Virus record (IMG/VR): IMGVR_UViG_3300032219_002227 | Coordinates: 1-64,000 of that record | DNA length: 64,000 nt | Source of the DNA: a virus | Lineage: Duplodnaviria > Caudoviricetes | Reading direction: 5' to 3' (one strand) | Notes under the pieces: generated by a model | Seen by the model: the letters and a program-made list of their open reading frames with translations, nothing else | The model's database searches: none | Told to the model about the DNA's origin: nothing | Shown: positions 12,294 to 60,327 of the stretch, piece after piece | How the letters are laid out: each line of letters opens with the position of its first letter | How positions within the stretch are numbered: the first letter of the stretch is position 1 | Position numbers and translations under genes: made by a program

Positions 12294-14498
12294 ATGGGAT
12301 TAATACTGCGTACTACTGCCACTCCTAATGCAGGGACTACAACTTCTGTTAAAGGTTCACCACTTACATTCGCTGAAGGAGATGGTAACTTTGCCTATCT
12401 ACTGACTAATATGTCAGGTAGTAATATATCCATTTCTGGTTCTACTACAATAGCAGGATCATTAACTTTTGCTAATATATCATCTGGTGTTACTGAGAAT
12501 AGAGTTGTAGTTGTTGATACTAATGGTCTCTTTAAATATAGAACTGATGTAAGTTTACAAGGTGCAACAGGAGCTCAAGGTGCTACTGGAGCAGGAACTC
12601 AAGGAGCAACAGGCGCTCAAGGTACAACAGGTGCAGGTACGCAAGGTGCAACTGGAGCCCAAGGTGCTGCTGGAACTGGTACTCAAGGTGCTACTGGTGC
12701 TCAAGGAGCAGCAGGAGCTGGTACTCAAGGCGCTACTGGTGCAAACGGAGCTCAAGGAGCAACAGGAGCTCAAGGCACAACAGGTGCCGGAACTCAAGGA
12801 GCAACAGGTGCTCAAGGCGCTACTGGCACGGGAACCCAAGGCGCAACTGGGGCACAAGGCACAACAGGTGCCGGAACTCAAGGAGCAACAGGTGCAAACG
12901 GCGCTCAAGGAGCCACTGGTACTCAAGGCGCTACTGGCGCCGGTACTCAAGGTACTACTGGTGCACAAGGAGCAGCAGGTACAAACGGAGCTCAAGGTAC
13001 TACTGGTGCTCAAGGCGCTACTGGCGCCGGTACTCAAGGTACTACTGGTGCACAAGGAGCAGCAGGTACAAACGGAGCTCAAGGTACTACTGGTGCTCAA
13101 GGTGCAACAGGTGCTGGAACTCAAGGCGCAACCGGCGCTCAAGGTGCTACTGGTACGCAAGGTGCAACTGGTGCAACAGGTACAGGAACTCAAGGCGCAA
13201 CAGGCGCTCAAGGTGCAACTGGTGCACAAGGTGCAACTGGTGCACAAGGTGCAACAGGAACTCAAGGTGCTACTGGTGCTCAAGGTACTGCTGGAACAAA
13301 CGGAGCTCAAGGTGCTACTGGCGCTCAAGGCACTGCTGGAACAACGGGCGCTCAAGGCGCAACAGGCACAACAGGTGCCCAAGGTACAACTGGTACAACA
13401 GGTACTCAAGGCACAACTGGTACTACCGGAGCTCAAGGCACAACAGGCACAACCGGAGCTCAAGGCACAACTGGTGCTACCGGAGCTCAAGGTACAACTG
13501 GTACAACAGGTACTCAAGGCACAACTGGTACTACCGGAGCTCAAGGTACAACTGGAACAACTGGAACTCAAGGTGCTCAAGGCGCTAATGGTGCTCAAGG
13601 CACTGCTGGAACAAATGGAACTCAAGGTGCTCAAGGCGCTCAAGGTACAACAGGTGCAACAGGTACAGGTACTCAAGGCGCTCAAGGAGCTCAAGGTACA
13701 ACAGGTGCAACAGGTACAGGTACTCAAGGCGCTCAAGGCGCTCAAGGTACAACAGGTGCAACAGGTACAGGTACTCAAGGCGCTCAAGGCGCTCAAGGCG
13801 CTCAAGGTGCAACAGGTGCTGGTGGATCTGCTGGTACATCTTTTACCTGGTTAGGAGCTTGGTCATCAGGACCTACTTATACTCCTAATCAAGTTGTTGA
13901 ATATCAAGGTAGCTCTTGGATTTCTATCTTAGCTAATTCTTCTACACCACCTCCTGGTCAACCTACATATTGGTCATTAATGGCAAGTCAAGGAACTCAA
14001 GGCGCAACAGGTACAGGTACTCAAGGTGCTCAAGGAACTACTGGTACAACTGGAGCAAATGCTGGTATAACATCATATACTAATCCTGGTAATAATAGAG
14101 TTCTAACTTCAGTAGATGCAAATACTATCAATGCTGAAGCTAATCTTACATTTGATAGTGGTACTAATATATTAAATGTAAATGGAAGTATTACAGCTAC
14201 CGGAGATATAACAGCATATTTTACTTCAGATATAAGACATAAAAATAATATCCAACCTATTGAAAATGCATTAGATAAAGTTAAAAAAATAAGTGGTGTT
14301 ATATGGGAATGGAATCAAGAAACAACTGATGAAGTAACAAAAACACTTCCTAATACAGGTCTTATAGCACAAGAAGTACAAGAAATATTACCAGAAGTAG
14401 TTATTGAAAGACAAGATGGGTATCTAGCTATAGATTATTCTAAAATGTTAGGTTTAATAGTTGAAGCTATAAAAGAATTAGATAAAAAGATTTCCTAA
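12294..14498 (+). CDS. Collagen-like fibre protein with C-terminal intramolecular chaperone (peptidase S74-like)
   Basis: Long G-X-Y tract ([12 protein letters not shown]); [10 protein letters not shown]...GLIAQEVQ...AIDYSKM...VEAIKEL. Confidence 0.88.
12556..13820 (+). repeat. Collagen-coding tandem repeats
   Basis: Exact 87-bp duplication (units start at 12922 and 13009); about three 51-bp units near 13637-13790. Confidence 0.9.
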
Positions 14499-21586: not shown

Positions 21587-23197
21587 ATGAGTAAAATAAT
21601 TAAATTTGATCGCGACGCAAAAGAAAAACTACAGACCGGTATTAAAAAAGTACACGATGCTGTAACGGTTACAATGGGTCCTTTTGGACGTAATGTATTA
21701 ATTGAAAAAGAACATGGACAAGTAGCCTCAACTAAAGATGGTGTTACTGTTGCTAAAACCATTACATTGGAAGATCCAATCGAAAATATGGGTGCAACTG
21801 TAATTAAACAAGCAGCATCTAAAACAGTTGACCAAGCAGGTGATGGTACAACTACATCTACATTGTTGGCTTATAGTATTGCTAATCAAGCACTTGAATT
21901 GACTTCAAAACCATCAGTTAATGTTACTCAAGTAAAATATGGTATTGAAGCTGCTGTTAGGAATATTGTTAGTGAACTTAAATCAATGTCTGTAGACATT
22001 ACTGATGAAAAGCAAATCAAACAAATTGCTACACTCTCAGCTAATGGTGACGGAGAAATTGGAGAATTAGTAGCTACAGCTATCGATAAAGTAGGCAGAG
22101 ATGGTATTGTAACAGTAGAAGAATCACGTTCAGGTGAAACATCACTTGAAGTAGTAGAAGGTCTTCAATTTGACCGCGGTTACAAATCACCTTATATGGT
22201 GACCGATAACAATACAATGCAAGCAGTACTTACAGATGCTTCTATTTTGTTATATGATGGTAGAATTAGCACTATAAAAGATCTATTACCTATACTTGAA
22301 CGTATCTCCTCAGACAATAAATCATTATTGATTGTAGCTGAAGATATTGATGGAGAAGCACTTTCAACACTCATTGTAAATAAAATGAGAGGTATCTTAA
22401 AAGTAGTAGCTGTTAAAGCACCTGATTTTGGAGATCGTAGAACACTTATTCTTGAAGATATTGCTATTGTAACAGGCGGTACTGTAATTTCACCACAAAA
22501 AGGAATGAAATTAGATAAGTTTAATATGTCTTGGTTAGGTACTGCTAGAACTGTTACGGTAGGCAAAGATACAACTACGATCGTTGATGGTAAAGGCGAA
22601 ACTGAAAAAATTGATGCTCGTATTAATGAATTAAAAGCTCAAATTGATACTAATAATTCACCATATGAAGTAGAACGTTTACAAGATCGTTTAGCTAAGA
22701 TTGTAGGTGGTGTAGCTATTATTAATGTTGGTGGTGGTACTGAAGTTGAAATGAAAGAAAGAAAAGATCGTATTGATGATGCACTCCAAGCAACTAAAGC
22801 TGCACTTGAAGAAGGTATTGTACCTGGTGCTGGTATGGCTTTATTTAATGCTAGAAATGCTATTAATAATAGAGATAATAGTGATTCTGGATTAGGTGGT
22901 CAAATTGTATTTAAAGCATGTTCAACTCCACTTAATAAAATTTTAACTAATGCTGGTGAAGATTATTACGAATGGGTTTCAATTCTAAAAGATAGAAATG
23001 CTGTTCCTGATATTGTAGGAGACAGAACAGTAGATGCTTTCAAATCAGGTATTATCGATCCAACTAAAGTAGTACGTTGTGCACTTGAAAATGCAGCTGC
23101 AGCCGCCACTACATTATTGATGACAGAATGTGTTATTTATAATAAACAAGAAGATAAGAAAAAAGAAGAGATTGATATGGCAGGATTTGGAATGTAA
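21587..23197 (+). CDS. groEL: Chaperonin GroEL
   Basis: TMGPFGRNV, TKDGVTVAK, AGDGTTT, FDRGY, KAPDFGDRR, GIIDPTKVVR. Confidence 0.97.
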   Translation: MSKIIKFDRDAKEKLQTGIKKVHDAVTVTMGPFGRNVLIEKEHGQVASTKDGVTVAKTITLEDPIENMGATVIKQAASKTVDQAGDGTTTSTLLAYSIANQALELTSKPSVNVTQVKYGIEAAVRNIVSELKSMSVDITDEKQIKQIATLSANGDGEIGELVATAIDKVGRDGIVTVEESRSGETSLEVVEGLQFDRGYKSPYMVTDNNTMQAVLTDASILLYDGRISTIKDLLPILERISSDNKSLLIVAEDIDGEALSTLIVNKMRGILKVVAVKAPDFGDRRTLILEDIAIVTGGTVISPQKGMKLDKFNMSWLGTARTVTVGKDTTTIVDGKGETEKIDARINELKAQIDTNNSPYEVERLQDRLAKIVGGVAIINVGGGTEVEMKERKDRIDDALQATKAALEEGIVPGAGMALFNARNAINNRDNSDSGLGGQIVFKACSTPLNKILTNAGEDYYEWVSILKDRNAVPDIVGDRTVDAFKSGIIDPTKVVRCALENAAAAATTLLMTECVIYNKQEDKKKEEIDMAGFGM

Positions 23198-52160: not shown

Positions 52161-52700
52161 ATGCCAAAATTACGTCGACTTAAAGCAGATCCACTTAATA
52201 GAATCATCACAGTAGGATATATCGATGCAGATTCAATCAACGATATCATCCAACTTATATATGAAATTAACGAAGAAGACGTTAAAAAAACGCAAGTAGA
52301 ACCGATAAAATTAATAATTAATTCACCTGGCGGAGAAGTATATAGCGGTTTAGCTTTAATTGATGTAATTGATAATTCATTAACCCCTATATATACAGTA
52401 TGTCATGGTGCTGCAATGTCGATGGGATTAATAGTATACGCTGCTGGACATAGTAGAATAGCAAGTAAATACGCTACATTTATGTATCATGAATCGCATT
52501 ATGAAATAAATGGAAAAGTAACTACTCATAAACAAGAAATAAAAGAAACAAATCGTACTGAAAAAATATGTGATGACTATTTACTTTCTAAAACAAAACT
52601 TACTCTAGCTGTATTAAAAAAAGTTAAAAGTAAACAGGAAGAATGGTATTTTGATGTAAATACTGCTAAAAAATATGGACTAGTAGACGAAATTATTTAA
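52161..52700 (+). CDS. clpP: ClpP-family protease
   Basis: INSPGG, AMSMG (Ser), FMYH (His), AKKYGLVDEI. Confidence 0.88.
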   Translation: MPKLRRLKADPLNRIITVGYIDADSINDIIQLIYEINEEDVKKTQVEPIKLIINSPGGEVYSGLALIDVIDNSLTPIYTVCHGAAMSMGLIVYAAGHSRIASKYATFMYHESHYEINGKVTTHKQEIKETNRTEKICDDYLLSKTKLTLAVLKKVKSKQEEWYFDVNTAKKYGLVDEII

Positions 52701-54689: not shown

Positions 54690-54896
54690 ATGGCACAATT
54701 TTTTCAAGTTAAAGTTCAATTTACCTTTGAAGACGATAAAGGTAAAGTAAAAAAATCAAATGTATTGTATCTTGTAGATGCACAATCAGTTACTGAAGCA
54801 GAAGCAAGAATGGTACAGCATTTAAATGATGTTGGAGAACAAGCATTTGAAGTAAAAGCAGCAGCTGAATCACCAATTATTGAAGTGATTAGATAA
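54690..54896 (+). CDS. DUF4494-like protein
   Basis: G.VKK...YLVDAQSVTEAEAR. Confidence 0.72.
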   Translation: MAQFFQVKVQFTFEDDKGKVKKSNVLYLVDAQSVTEAEARMVQHLNDVGEQAFEVKAAAESPIIEVIR

Positions 54897-54928
54897 AAGA
54901 AGGGATTGGTAGAAACCAATCCCTGTTT
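54895..54928. terminator. Terminator hairpin between convergent genes
   Basis: AGGGATTGGT-AGAA-ACCAATCCCT (54901-54924), A-rich left flank and GTTT right flank. Confidence 0.85.
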
Positions 54929-54946
54929 AAAATAAAAAAAACTAAA

Positions 54947-55111
54947 TTAAGCTTTCTTCTTGGAAAAGATAGACCATGCAGCACCAACTAAAGTCATTAC
55001 ACCACCAATAACCTCTGCAGAGAGATTTTCATCAATTAAACCTTTAGTTACGATAATACCACCAATAAAGGTTAAAGCATGTCTAACAAGTCCTAATACT
55101 TGATCTTTCAT
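54947..55111 (-). CDS. 54-aa 2-TM holin-like protein (not in ORF track)
   Basis: MKDQVLGLVRHALTFIGGIIVTKGLIDENLSAEVIGGVMTLVGAAWSIFSKKKA; own promoter motif and terminator. Confidence 0.8.
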   Translation of the reverse strand: MKDQVLGLVRHALTFIGGIIVTKGLIDENLSAEVIGGVMTLVGAAWSIFSKKKA

Positions 55112-55201
55112 AATAAATTGTTTTTAGTTAAAAATAATTAGATCACATATAAATATTAAGAAAAATTAGGAGAATGCAAAAAAATATAATATATTTAAAA
55201 T

Positions 55202-55805: not shown

Positions 55806-55892
55806 GCCCTTGTGGTGGAATAGGTAGACACGCAGGACTTAAAATCCTGTTCGCTGAAAAAGCGAGTGCGGGTTCGATTCCCGCTGGGGGCA
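55806..55892 (+). tRNA. tRNA-Leu (anticodon TAA), CCA not encoded
   Basis: CAGGA-CTTAAAA-TCCTG anticodon arm, long variable arm, GCGGG-TTCGATT-CCCGC. Confidence 0.95.
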
Positions 55893-55893
55893 C

Positions 55894-56544: not shown

Positions 56545-56929
56545 GGGGATAACCGGTATCGATCCGGATGTAGAGGTAATACTACATGCAGGCATTTGAG
56601 TATACTGCCTTAGAAGATACTAAACAATAAACGCTGAAGAATTATCTTCATTCACTTTCGAAGATGCAATGTCTTTCGTTGGTGCTGATTACGCAGTAGC
56701 TGCCTAATCAAACACGGGTAAGTAACCTAGGAACAGAACTACTTTGAGTATTCACGATCGACTCATTAAATAAGGACTGTGGATTAGTTTCTTGATGTCA
56801 TAAATCAAGTGGTGGAAACGACCATAACGGTCAGCCCTACTGATCAGATTCGTTCAGATCTAAGCATGTGAGACGTTAGTATTATTGTCTCTTTCGGAGA
56901 CGTGGGTTCGAATCCCACTATCTCCACCA
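56545..56929 (+). ncRNA. ssrA: tmRNA
   Basis: GGGGATA/TATCTCC-ACCA acceptor with G3.U70; GTGGG-TTCGAAT-CCCAC T-arm; tag frame 56633-56707 AEELSSFTFEDAMSFVGADYAVAA*. Confidence 0.95.
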
Positions 56930-57253: not shown

Positions 57254-57303
57254 ATTTTGGGCAAAATATTTTATTATATTTAAATAAATAAATTAATTAA
57301 ATT

Positions 57304-57519
57304 ATGAAAAAGATTATGGTAATTGCTGCTAGTATGTTTTTGGCCTCTTGCGGCGGGTCATCTGAAAGTCCAGTATCTACTGATTCAACTGTAGTAGATT
57401 CTATTACAGTTTTAATTGATTCAGTAGCAGTAGCTGATTCATCTGTTGGAGCTGCTCAAGGTAACGGTGACATTACAGGAGGAAGTGGTCAATCTCCTCA
57501 TGGAGTGCCTGTAAAATAA
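57304..57519 (+). CDS. Small lipoprotein
   Basis: MKK, hydrophobic core, LASC lipobox; S/T/D-rich body. Confidence 0.8.
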   Translation: MKKIMVIAASMFLASCGGSSESPVSTDSTVVDSITVLIDSVAVADSSVGAAQGNGDITGGSGQSPHGVPVK

Positions 57520-57553
57520 GTATGTTTTAACATATTTATAGCCGTAAAAATTC

Positions 57554-57586
57554 AAGGTTGTATATAGAAATATATGCAACCTTTTT
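57554..57586 (+). terminator. Terminator-like hairpin
   Basis: AAGGTTGTATATA-GAAA-TATATGCAACCTT-TTT. Confidence 0.75.
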
Positions 57587-57615
57587 CTATTTTTACTTCA
57601 TTAAAAATTAAAAGT

Positions 57616-57867
57616 ATGAAAAAATTCTTCAAATCACTATTCAGTGATGACAACAACATAAATGAAAAATCATTTATAGGCTTTTTAGCATTTATAATGA
57701 TGGTTGGATTTGCTATAGCCGACATAATTACAGGTACTTTAGGTAAAGAACTTATGGTTCAGGAATTTATATTTAATTCATTCTTATGGTTAACATTAGG
57801 ATGTTTTGGTATTGCTTCTGTTGACAAATACATTAATAAAAAAGATCAAGAATCTGAGGAGGTATAA
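57616..57867 (+). CDS. 2-TM holin-like membrane protein (start at 57616 preferred)
   Basis: MKKFFKSLFSDDNNINEKSFIGFLAF..., two TM helices; the upstream ATG lies inside the hairpin. Confidence 0.7.
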   Translation: MKKFFKSLFSDDNNINEKSFIGFLAFIMMVGFAIADIITGTLGKELMVQEFIFNSFLWLTLGCFGIASVDKYINKKDQESEEV

Positions 57868-57868
57868 C

Positions 57869-57979
57869 ATGGCACGAAAGCAATCAAAACCGAAACCAAT
57901 GAGATCAAGAAAAAGTGGTCTTAAAAAGAAAAAGTTAATTGAACAAAATATAAAAGTAATTAAAAATCTAGAAAATTAA
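57869..57979 (+). CDS. 36-aa highly basic peptide (not in ORF track)
   Basis: MARKQSKPKPMRSRKSGLKKKKLIEQNIKVIKNLEN fills the gap. Confidence 0.65.
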   Translation: MARKQSKPKPMRSRKSGLKKKKLIEQNIKVIKNLEN

Positions 57980-57983
57980 AAGT

Positions 57984-58256
57984 ATGAAAAATTTAGTAAG
58001 TAAATTATTGCCGTTAGTTGACAAGTTTAAAGGTAAAAAGCCAATCGTTTTAATTTTATCTGCTGTAGCAATTGCTGCTTGTATCTTTGCTGTTCAAAAA
58101 GGATACATTGCTGAAGGTTCTATTGATTTTGGAAGTATTATAGATCAAATTAATAATGCTTTCGCTGATAATACTATTATTGTACCTGCAGATAGCATTA
58201 TTTCTCCTGTAGATACTTTAGCTATTGAAATTGTTGATAGCGTAATAACTCAATAA
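57984..58256 (+). CDS. Single-TM protein with acidic tail
   Basis: IVLILSAVAIAACIFAV. Confidence 0.7.
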   Translation: MKNLVSKLLPLVDKFKGKKPIVLILSAVAIAACIFAVQKGYIAEGSIDFGSIIDQINNAFADNTIIVPADSIISPVDTLAIEIVDSVITQ

Positions 58257-59000
58257 ATGAAGAATCTATCTAAGGAAGAATTACTTAGTAGACTCGAAGC
58301 AATTAATAGAAGCAATGCTATTATCTATTTTGACCTTGATGGGTACATCTTAGGAGTAAATGCTATCTTTTTAAAAGCAATGGGATACGGAGATGAAGAA
58401 CACAAGCAACTCATCGGAAAACACCATAGTATATTTGTTACTTATGAATATTCAAAGTCTACTGAATACCAGGAATTTTGGAAAACATTAAGAAGTGGTA
58501 GATTCTTTGAAGGCGAGTTTGAAAGAAAGAAAGTAGATGGTAGCCCTATCTATTTACAAGCAACATATAATCCTATCTTTGATGAAAGCGGTACCATCAC
58601 TAAGGTAATGAAGATTGCTACTGACATCACAGAAACAGTAGTCAGTAAAAATAAGATAGATGCTCTTTCTAAAGACCTACAGGCTGAATTAGATAAATCA
58701 CAGCAATTAAAAAATGCAATTGAAGTAGAAAAAAACGCTGCTTTAAATGATTTGGATGTGTTGATGAAGAAAAGTCAATCTGAGTTAATTAAGACAATTG
58801 TAGTGGTTGCTTTGATAGTAATTGTAGGAGTAGGTGTTGTAACAACTATGTTATATTGGATGGCTATGATCACGGGTAAAGACACACAGATTATTGGCTC
58901 GACTTGGAGTAATATGTTTAGTGTATTATTGACAAATGCATTCTCAATAGTTGGAACAATTATGGGTATAAAATATGCCACTCAAGATAAACAAAAATAA
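58257..59000 (+). CDS. PAS/PAC domain, coiled coil and two C-terminal TM helices
   Basis: AINRSNAIIYFDLDG..L..N..FL..MGY...GKHHS...FWKTL..G...LQATYNPI...KIATDIT; TMs at about aa 180-203 and 220-237. Confidence 0.88.
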   Translation: MKNLSKEELLSRLEAINRSNAIIYFDLDGYILGVNAIFLKAMGYGDEEHKQLIGKHHSIFVTYEYSKSTEYQEFWKTLRSGRFFEGEFERKKVDGSPIYLQATYNPIFDESGTITKVMKIATDITETVVSKNKIDALSKDLQAELDKSQQLKNAIEVEKNAALNDLDVLMKKSQSELIKTIVVVALIVIVGVGVVTTMLYWMAMITGKDTQIIGSTWSNMFSVLLTNAFSIVGTIMGIKYATQDKQK

Positions 59001-59051
59001 AAATAAAAAAATAAATATTACTAAAAATTAATATTTATAACAAAATAAATT

Positions 59052-59651
59052 ATGGACATTAATAAATTAAAAGGACATATCCCAGACAGCGTTATAACAC
59101 AACTTCCAGACACAATTGCTAAATTTGAATTGAACACTCCGTTACGTTTAGCTCACTTCTTAGCTCAAGCAGGTCATGAATCTGGTGGATTTAAAGCAGT
59201 AAATGAAAACTTAAATTATGGTGCTAAAGGTTTGTTAGGTATATTTAAAAAATATTTTCCAACTCCTGAAAAAGCAGCTTTATATGAGCGCAAACCAGAA
59301 AAAATTGCTAATCTAGTTTATGGTGGTAGAATGGGTAATGGTCCTGAAGCATCAGGTGAAGGATATAAATTTCGCGGACGTGGATATATCCAGTTAACAG
59401 GTAAAGATAACTATAAAGCATTTGACGCTGTAGTATCTGAAGCTATTGTTGATAATCCAGATTTAGTTGCTACTAAATATCCATTGTTATCTGCTGCTTG
59501 GTTCTTCCATAAAAATGGATTACATAAAATTGCAGATAAAGGTGCTACTGATGCTATAGTAACAGAAGTTACAAAGCGTGTAAATGGTGGTACTATTGGT
59601 TTAGCTGACAGAATTAAACATTTTAAAGAATATTTTGCTTTGTTAAAATAA
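59052..59651 (+). CDS. GH19 endolysin
   Basis: RLAHFLAQAGHESGGF, ENLNY, FRGRGYIQLTGKDNY, VNGG. Confidence 0.93.
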   Translation: MDINKLKGHIPDSVITQLPDTIAKFELNTPLRLAHFLAQAGHESGGFKAVNENLNYGAKGLLGIFKKYFPTPEKAALYERKPEKIANLVYGGRMGNGPEASGEGYKFRGRGYIQLTGKDNYKAFDAVVSEAIVDNPDLVATKYPLLSAAWFFHKNGLHKIADKGATDAIVTEVTKRVNGGTIGLADRIKHFKEYFALLK

Positions 59652-59689
59652 TTTGAAAGTCAAAATAAAAGTTATATATTTAAAGAGTT

Positions 59690-60184
59690 ATGTGGAGAAT
59701 AAAACAATTTTTTAAAAGTATTAATAATCTAATAAGGTGGTTTCCCATTATCTGGAAAGACAGAGACTGGGATGACCACTTTATTTTTGAAATACTCAAA
59801 TTCAAACTTAAGAATCAAGCTAAGTATATTGGAAATAAAGATAGACATGTATCTGCTAAACGTGATGCTGAAAAAATGATGTTGTGTGTTCGTTTAATTG
59901 AAAAGGTACAGGATGAATATTATGGAACAGAATATTTTGATTATCATGAATCAAAATTAAATTTTATAGACAGCAAATCACATCCAGGAATGTATGAAAT
60001 GGAAGTAGATTATATTTCAGAACATTTTAATGATTATTTTAAAAAATACCCTCGTATTTATAACCAGGTTAAAACTGAAGATAGACATAAAACTGCATTT
60101 AATATAGCTAGAATAAATGAAGAACGAGCACATAAATTATTATTTAAAATATTAGAACAAAACATTAGAAGATGGTGGGATTAA
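59690..60184 (+). CDS. Hypothetical phage protein
   Basis: IWKDRDWD...WWD; preceded by a host-type promoter. Confidence 0.75.
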   Translation: MWRIKQFFKSINNLIRWFPIIWKDRDWDDHFIFEILKFKLKNQAKYIGNKDRHVSAKRDAEKMMLCVRLIEKVQDEYYGTEYFDYHESKLNFIDSKSHPGMYEMEVDYISEHFNDYFKKYPRIYNQVKTEDRHKTAFNIARINEERAHKLLFKILEQNIRRWWD

Positions 60185-60327
60185 TTATTTTAATTACTTT
60201 AACAGTACTATTATTAGGTTCATTAATTTGGTTATGGGTTGGTAGTATTGAGTATATGGCTAAAAACCACCCTGATTATAAGGGAGAAGATTTCTTTAAT
60301 GAAGAAGATAAAAATGAAATATTATGA
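60172..60327 (+). CDS. 51-aa single-TM protein (not in ORF track)
   Basis: MVGLIILITLTVLLLGSLIWLWVGSIEYMAKNHPDYKGEDFFNEEDKNEIL. Confidence 0.7.
   Translation: MVGLIILITLTVLLLGSLIWLWVGSIEYMAKNHPDYKGEDFFNEEDKNEIL

Follow-up and report, generated by a model that had tools for sequence, protein, structure and literature searches.

A PAS sensor fused to a two-helix membrane module in a phage lysis island: a candidate regulator of lysis timing

The timing of lysis is a central fitness trait of phages. Holins are triggered by loss of the proton-motive force, and class II holins and pinholins, such as S68 of phage 21, contain two transmembrane (TM) domains with both termini in the cytoplasm (N-in/C-in). 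To our knowledge, the only well-studied case of signal-dependent lysis timing is the lysis inhibition of T-even phages, which senses superinfection from outside the cell. Effectors of the cyclic-oligonucleotide-based antiphage signalling system (CBASS) and of Pycsar combine a cytoplasmic ligand-binding domain with TM helices and disrupt the membrane upon ligand binding, and the LytSR two-component system governs the holin-like LrgAB and CidAB proteins through transcription by a DNA-binding regulator. For the SpoIISA protein of Bacillus subtilis, it was suggested by its authors that the cytosolic domain regulates the assembly of a hole-forming multimer and that the protein could act as a holin (PMC3057836). 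The literature searched, the coverage of which was incomplete, contained no report of a phage lysis protein coupled to a PAS domain, a GAF domain or a kinase. The gene analysed here (P0121) lies within the first 64,000 nucleotides of the Caudoviricetes record IMGVR_UViG_3300032219_002227 (positions 1 to 64,000, hereafter the window) and encodes a PAS sensor domain, a coiled coil and two TM helices directly upstream of an endolysin gene. With a probability of approximately 0.5, its product is an accessory, signal-gated regulator of lysis timing that acts in the membrane.

Sensor domain, membrane hairpin and protein family

Pfam identifies a full PAS domain, scoring above the gathering threshold, at residues 20–126 of the P0121 gene product (PAS_9 4.5e-12, PAS_3 2.4e-11, PAS 6.5e-10) and detects neither a kinase nor an MCPsignal, HAMP or GGDEF domain; the NCBIfam match is to the PAS sensory box only. 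A match to phrog_1544 (E 0.094) is weak and was disregarded. The AlphaFold2 model, for which a 40-row family alignment served as input, has a mean predicted local distance difference test (pLDDT) score of 82.8 and features the PAS fold at residues 20–123, the final strand of which continues into a single 82-residue helix (125–206), followed by a four-residue turn (207–210) and a second helix (211–246). Hydropathy assigns the two TM segments to the end of the first helix (TM1, 177–206) and to the second helix (TM2, 211–240), and the protein ends in a tail of nine residues with a net charge of +2. The hairpin is predicted to be N-in/C-in because the PAS domain is cytoplasmic and basic residues are present at both cytoplasmic ends, a topology shared with the class II holins. 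The first-pass annotation of this DNA, made from the sequence without database searches, had described a complete PAS domain, a coiled coil, two TM helices, a short tail and no output domain, and Pfam, the AlphaFold2 model and hydropathy bear out each of these anatomical points. The gene immediately upstream (up90) is in the same frame, with a single TAA between the two; expression of P0121 by readthrough or recoding from up90 was considered and rejected, since homologues share the start MKNLSKEEL. Homologues that are longer than the window protein owe their length to a second PAS domain and not to an N-terminal extension.

The nearest solved structures to the PAS domain by sequence are those of MmoS (3EWK, 3.5e-10), Aer (8DIK) and NifL (2GJ3), all of which bind flavin adenine dinucleotide. 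Foldseek likewise matches the domain to flavin PAS/LOV domains, with a probability of 1.00 to NifL, MmoS and Aer, and further matches include short LOV proteins as well as LOV-kinase chimeras whose PAS domain is linked to the output by a long helix (4GCZ, 8A3U). The Trp of the DMW motif is retained (W75), and the alignment of the window PAS domain contains no LOV adduct cysteine, the matching stretch being GKHHSIFV. The best guess for the sensed signal is a flavin or redox cue. The single PAS domain of the window protein is a mosaic of the two domains found in two-PAS relatives, with residues 1–60 and 101–120 resembling PAS1 and residues 61–100 and 121–140 resembling PAS2; the one-PAS form may have arisen by deletion or the two-PAS form by duplication.

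The membrane hairpin is strongly constrained. L166, V182, Y200, W217, T226, N227, F229, S230, I231, G233, T234 and G237 are invariant in 40 family members, some of which are only 35% identical overall. The mean column entropy of TM2 is 0.41 bits and no face of the helix is favoured, and TM1 has an entropy of 1.25 bits with one face conserved (conservation moment 0.32). An arc of approximately 120–140 degrees on the helical wheel holds the small and polar TM2 residues T226, N227, S230, G233, T234 and G237. This is the pattern expected of an inner helix buried all round and an outer, lipid-facing helix, like those of two-TM channels. TM2 is invariant on every face and is therefore more than a passive anchor. 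Typical holins diverge fast, and a near-invariant TM helix is unlike them. The look-alikes of the hairpin in the ESM Atlas are all viral hypothetical clusters with scores of at most 0.89 and provide leads only.

When compared with 13 one-PAS homologues, the gene has a median ratio of nonsynonymous to synonymous substitution rates (dN/dS) of 0.067, with values of 0.06 for the PAS domain, 0.11 for the coiled coil and 0.07 for the hairpin, the synonymous sites being near saturation. The gene is thus under strong purifying selection and functional. The PAS domain resembles those of Aer-type receptors, and the automatic name given to the homologues by the Joint Genome Institute is methyl-accepting chemotaxis protein, both of which would suit a functionless, decaying fragment of a captured host chemoreceptor. 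This explanation, raised in the first-pass annotation as a possible refutation, is effectively refuted by the dN/dS of approximately 0.07, the thousands of intact homologues, the lack of any MCPsignal or HAMP remnant and the phage-only membrane module. The chemotaxis-protein names carried by homologues rest on the PAS domain alone.

The last 118 aa of the protein were used as the query for the C-terminal module in an exhaustive HMMER search of 1.84 billion representatives. The module is matched by 98 cluster representatives, invariably at the C-terminus, with varied N-termini. The N-terminal inputs comprise a PAS domain, two tandem PAS domains, a second PAS type (P0133), a GAF domain (P0131, 2.5e-17) and a domain of approximately 70 aa named 'LEGNILK', which belongs to no known family and is the most diverse input class. 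All five 'LEGNILK' members examined (5/5) have a stand-alone receiver gene of 143–150 aa directly upstream, often with a 4 bp overlap, and a histidine kinase gene precedes the receiver wherever the contig reaches that far; one such kinase bears a PAS domain. The coiled-coil/2-TM module is therefore a common output of phage-encoded signalling, of which the window protein is the directly fused, one-component version. Other N-termini on the same hairpin, seen in P0142, P0162 and P0126, are a fragment of a SOUL heme-binding domain, a fragment of a GT2 domain and a zinc finger of the C2H2 type; these may be inputs or assembly chimeras. On the 47-kb contig with P0189, the kinase-receiver-hairpin operon adjoins two large leucine-rich-repeat proteins.

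The window protein serves as the reference sequence of this unnamed coiled-coil/2-TM output family, to which it belongs. None of Pfam, PHROG, NCBIfam and PADLOC yields a match to the hairpin module, which appears, as far as can be seen, to be confined to phages. Thousands of metagenomic homologues are approximately 75% identical to the window protein, and most of them are 368–381 aa in length through two tandem PAS domains; 83 related loci include approximately 27 one-PAS and 47 two-PAS forms. No cultured carrier was found by tblastn of 50,697 cultured-phage records, in which the whole protein gave PAS-level matches only and a PAS-less member gave none.

Linkage to lysis genes and occurrence among relatives

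Genes were called and clustered in 85 related loci, and counts were made over the 36 distinct neighbourhoods in which the sensor gene is flanked by four or more genes on either side. A lysin of the GH19, GH24 or M15 type is present within one gene of the sensor gene in 10 of the 36 neighbourhoods, within two genes in 20, within three in 26 and within five in 31; for one lysin among 243 ORFs, a position within three genes has a chance value of 2.5%. The recurrent neighbours are GH19 lysins, a GH24 lysozyme (Pfam 3.6e-43), an M15 peptidase endolysin (1.6e-21) and up97, a small protein with two TM domains that is encoded upstream of the sensor gene in the window. Proteins of the Phage_holin_4_1 family (PF05105; 1.7e-8 and 2.6e-6) also recur as neighbours, as do proteins with a lipobox and a C-terminal TM domain, a u-spanin architecture as judged by eye. 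The most constant neighbour of the sensor gene is up97: the two lie within two genes of each other in 20/36 neighbourhoods, and all three input architectures have them side by side. In the GAF version (L085), up97 directly follows the sensor gene and a GH19 gene with a glucosaminidase gene is located 1.1 kb beyond; a kinase-receiver version (L086, two-component-system type) has two amidase/peptidoglycan-binding genes before it and an up97 gene directly after it. The first-pass annotation had suggested a search with the C-terminal part for PAS-less homologues beside lysins. Such homologues do exist among the 98 clusters and are linked to lysis genes, and lysin linkage is seen in all input architectures, so the objection that homologues might not be linked to lysis genes fails.

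In a 211-kb relative, a 231-aa protein with two TM domains and a weak 4HB_MCP_1 match (L002, 7574–8269) is encoded between the PAS-PAS gene and the lysin gene and may be a chemoreceptor-like sensor part.

Relatives of the window phage were gathered with its DNA polymerase as an independent marker. Nine records were searched, seven of which are 94–100% complete and span 59–92% polymerase identity. The PAS-2TM module is missing from all seven complete or near-complete closest relatives, and the same query was positive in 4/4 known carriers. Among the relatives tested for each gene, the GH19 lysin is present in four of five (71–88% identity) and up97 in five of five. The sensor gene is dispensable, since the closest relatives lyse without it, and this pattern of presence and absence agrees with an antiholin, which is likewise dispensable for lysis. 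By its presence in these relatives, up97 is a constant, core member of the lysis island.

Alignment of the window with its closest relative (G001) delimits a replacement cassette that includes the sensor gene and the lysin gene. The flanks that align are 57256–57869, containing a lipoprotein gene and up97, and 59646–60327, containing a 164-aa gene. The counterpart of the cassette in G001 is 1.24 kb in length and encodes a TM/coiled-coil protein and a protein with a lipobox and a C-terminal TM domain, both of which are spanin-like. The GH19 gene of the closest relatives lies between two baseplate genes, and in the window phage genome that gap (84634–84693) is 58 bp and empty; the lysin gene was thus relocated or re-acquired beside the sensor gene. 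The stretch encoding a Phage_holin_10 protein (54872–55201, approximately 330 bp) is a window-specific insertion with no counterpart in G001. A PF23987 profile search of the relatives was empty, though this search had no working positive control. The sensor gene (up to 90% identity) also occurs in complete phages of 113.7 kb and 123.5 kb, in which no homologue of the window polymerase is detectable. The gene is absent from close relatives and present in unrelated phages, and is therefore regarded as an accessory cassette traded between lineages.

These data bear on the possibility that the PAS-2TM protein is itself a holin, which would form signal-gated holes for release of the signal-less GH19 lysin. 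Its N-in/C-in topology with two TM domains, its short basic tail and the position of its gene 51 nt upstream of that of a cytoplasmic lysin would suit a holin, as would the membrane module, with a small and polar TM2 face and an outer TM1 conserved on one face, as in two-TM channels. The move of the lysin gene from the baseplate module to the side of the sensor gene also fits, and a holin-like action has been proposed for SpoIISA, a toxin of the membrane whose GAF domain is cytoplasmic (PMC3057836). The protein nevertheless fails three defining features of holins. At 247–381 aa, the family far exceeds the usual holin size of about 60–150 aa; no holin family is matched in Pfam, PHROG or NCBIfam; and the gene is missing from the 7/7 closest relatives, four of five of which keep the lysin. 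The sensor gene furthermore coexists with recognised holin families (PF05105 and PF23987) and with core up97, and the near-invariance of its TM helix is unlike fast-evolving holins. A role as the holin proper is thus unlikely. The first-pass annotation had noted that the signal-less GH19 lysin needs a holin; the relatives, and the presence of both Phage_holin_10 and up97 in the window phage genome, do not support the sensor gene in that part. Its broader proposal of a holin or antiholin survives in the second half, as the data are better matched by a regulator (antiholin, pro-holin or trigger) than by a holin proper.

The same mobility would agree with a membrane effector that is unrelated to lysis and acts in superinfection exclusion, in control of membrane potential or ions, or in counter-defence. 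The gene is accessory and its carriers include the two phages without a homologous polymerase; it is located in a hypervariable island with a tRNA-Leu, a transfer-messenger RNA (tmRNA) and variable small genes, and some sub-lineages place it beside a 5'-3' exonuclease gene and other non-lysis genes. Such an effector is improbable given that a lysin of one of three families lies within three genes in 26/36 neighbourhoods, that up97 and lysins are found near all three input architectures, that the same slot is filled by spanin-like genes in a relative lacking the sensor gene, and that none of 5027 defence models (PADLOC) is matched.

The lysis island and the phage genome

The features of the window that relate to the sensor gene are listed in Table 1. 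The run of small membrane genes upstream (the lipoprotein, up97 and up90) and the signal-less GH19 lysin downstream are as the first-pass annotation had reported; the Phage_holin_10 gene, the holin-like look of up97 and the second PAS domain of most homologues had escaped it. The GH19 endolysin has no signal peptide, signal-anchor-release (SAR) segment, TM domain or hydrophobic N-terminal segment. The up97 protein matches no Pfam, PHROG, NCBIfam or PADLOC family; it looks more like a classical class II holin than the PAS protein does and is a putative holin by its architecture. Several other loci also have up90 ahead of their sensor gene, and a 41-aa ORF (cluster c57) holds the same spot as the 36-aa basic ORF in L014–L017. 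The 71-aa lipoprotein is a possible outer-membrane spanin component. The Phage_holin_10 gene is the sole minus-strand gene of its region.

Table 1. Features of the sensor gene and of the surrounding lysis island in the window (aa, amino acids; ORF, open reading frame; AF2, AlphaFold2)
Feature	Position	Strand	Basis or remark
PAS / coiled-coil / 2-TM gene (P0121)	58257..59000	+	247 aa; ORF, Pfam PAS, AF2 model, dN/dS
PAS domain, residues 20-124, cytoplasmic sensor	58314..58628	+	Pfam, solved-structure and Foldseek matches
Unbroken helix, residues 125-206: coiled coil 125-176, then TM1 177-206	58629..58874	+	DSSP on AF2 model
Loop end and TM2, residues 211-240	58887..58976	+	Near-invariance family-wide
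GH19-type endolysin	59052..59651	+	phrog_181 1e-67, Pfam Glyco_hydro_19 1.8e-7
up97, 83 aa from second ATG, 2 TM and K/E-rich tail	57616..57867	+	Alignment A2
up90, 90-aa type-II membrane protein, one TM	57984..58256	+	Stop abuts the PAS-gene ATG (TAAATG)
36-aa very basic ORF between up97 and up90	57869..57979	+	GAGGAGG ribosome-binding site
71-aa lipoprotein, lipobox LASC	57304..57519	+	Sub-threshold PG1828 lipoprotein match; beside up97 in G001 too
Phage_holin_10 (Pam3 gp28 family), 54 aa	54947..55111	-	Pfam PF23987 8e-19
Replacement cassette (36-aa basic ORF, up90, PAS-2TM, GH19)	57870..59645		1.8 kb; blastn of window against G001

The source phage genome is complete at 173,246 bp, with direct terminal repeats and a GC content of approximately 30%, and the window corresponds to its first 64 kb. 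It encodes a T4-type DNA polymerase, the nearest homolog of which belongs to Microcystis phage Mel-JY01 (35% identity), followed by those of T4-like cyanophages. The other genes of the phage include a DnaB helicase, a ribonucleotide reductase, GroEL (21587–23197), ClpP (52161–52700), a tRNA-Leu, a tmRNA and a block of glycosyltransferase and sugar-nucleotide enzymes of approximately 25 kb (26418–51278; GDP-mannose 4,6-dehydratase and PfkB kinase among them), the size of which is unusual for a phage. The tRNA-Leu(taa) (55806–55893) and the tmRNA (56545–56929, with a tag peptide ending in YAVAA) are located within the variable island of lysis genes, and the tRNA-Leu is 97% identical to that of the closest relative. 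A collagen-like tail-fibre gene at 12294–14498 stands out with a GC content that peaks locally at 48%. The T4 late-promoter motif TATAAATA shows no enrichment, with 21 matches against 22.6 expected. The phage GroEL is nearest to those of FCB-group bacteria (Chitinophagaceae, Ignavibacteria) at 50–53% identity (compared loci L088–L167), and the lipoprotein at 57304 bears a weak resemblance to a lipoprotein family of Porphyromonas; both are weak hints of a Bacteroidota-type host.

Proposed mode of action and comparison with known systems

As a regulator of lysis timing, the PAS-2TM protein would form a parallel coiled-coil oligomer, in which a ligand or redox change in the PAS domain would twist or shift the helix, as in PAS-kinase sensors, and repack the TM hairpins. 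The repacked hairpins would then alter the firing time of the real holin, which may be a member of the core up97 family, Phage_holin_10 or both. This could occur by one of two routes: intramembrane contact with the holin, in the manner of an antiholin or pro-holin, or an ion leak that lowers the proton-motive force so that the holin triggers. The net effect would be to tie the moment of lysis to the internal state of the host, and both a delay and an advance are possible.

Several points weigh against this proposal. The role in lysis is drawn from the gene neighbourhood, and the island also contains a tRNA, a tmRNA and other small accessory genes. Five of the 36 neighbourhoods have no recognised lysin within five genes. 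A formal P value for the lysin linkage overstates the case because the 36 neighbourhoods are interrelated, though their gene order is heavily shuffled. The status of up97 as a holin is an assignment by architecture only. A specific holin-binding antiholin is awkward because the hairpin is invariant while the neighbouring holins vary (PF05105, PF23987 and two up97 subfamilies). The flavin assignment is also uncertain, as the RHPDMP stretch of the Aer flavin pocket aligns with TYEYSK and Aer N85 with R. The coupling to host redox or energy state that the first-pass annotation had proposed is plausible but uncertain: the PAS domain is nearest to flavin-type redox sensors, but the Aer flavin-pocket motif is not kept.

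The two routes are weighted differently by the conservation data. Invariance of the hairpin leans slightly towards a generic action on the membrane or a conserved (host) target, and the steady pairing with up97 leans towards a partner protein. In a bolder reading, the invariant hairpin would act as a gated ion channel of small size, or phage 'viroporin', that sets the holin clock by lowering the proton-motive force, with flavin-type PAS domains, GAF domains and the kinase-receiver relay as its inputs. This is a tentative suggestion. If it is true, the module would be a modular, horizontally traded 'decision module', and the burst time would be chosen from the redox, energy or second-messenger state of the host. 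A gated pore would also be of interest to biotechnology, as a compact lysis switch of natural origin under ligand control.

If the PAS-2TM protein is a timing regulator, its family would represent a second principle of signal-dependent lysis, in which a cytoplasmic sensor is wired directly, or through a phage two-component relay, to a membrane module of the lysis cassette. Environmental metagenomes are rich in this family, of which they contain thousands of variants, and unrelated phages trade it. A 247-aa protein, a candidate holin and a lysin make it directly testable whether phages read host physiology to time their burst.

Among the systems described, the closest functional parallel to the sensor protein would be the antiholin-type timing inputs of T4 or ICP1. 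T4 holin T with the antiholins RI and RIII, and the lysis inhibition of ICP1 (PMC11413866, PMC7182436, PMC8385771), likewise involve accessory proteins of T4-like or other large lytic phages that link a sensed signal to holin timing. RI senses a periplasmic superinfection cue through a periplasmic domain, and RIII is small and cytoplasmic. Neither RI nor RIII has a PAS domain, GAF domain, coiled coil or 2-TM hairpin, no sequence similarity of either to the window protein was found, and the compartment that is sensed also differs. A homologue of T4 holin T (PF11031) was not detected in the genome by a search that had no working positive control. The class II holins and pinholins are alike in topology, in the small and polar TM2 face with GxxxG, in lysin adjacency and in the short charged tail, whereas the window protein is 3–5x larger, has a 175-residue cytoplasmic sensor and stalk, is dispensable, has an invariant TM2 and belongs to no holin family.

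The sensor half compares most closely with MmoS, NifL, Aer and the PAS/LOV-histidine kinases, in which the C-terminal strand of the PAS domain also extends as a long signalling helix; their output is a kinase or MCP domain, whereas that of the window protein is a TM hairpin. SpoIISA similarly places a GAF sensor fold on a membrane-damaging TM module (PMC3057836), and the two are likened by architecture with no claim of homology: SpoIISA is part of a bacterial toxin-antitoxin system with a protein antitoxin, and has three N-terminal TM domains and a C-terminal GAF domain, in the reverse order. CBASS and Pycsar effectors belong to host defence and are triggered by cyclic nucleotides, whereas the window gene is phage-encoded, is found in lysis cassettes and has no PADLOC match. 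The kinase-receiver-linked relatives of the module recall the control of holin-like proteins by LytSR (PMC3507848), which is bacterial and transcriptional, whereas the phage receiver has no output domain and the window sensor is fused directly to the membrane module. What is new here is the one-PAS form, the comparison of genomes with and without the cassette, the relocated lysin, core up97 and the transfer between unrelated phages. Lysis control that depends on a signal and membrane effectors gated by a sensor are each already known, and the window system joins the two.

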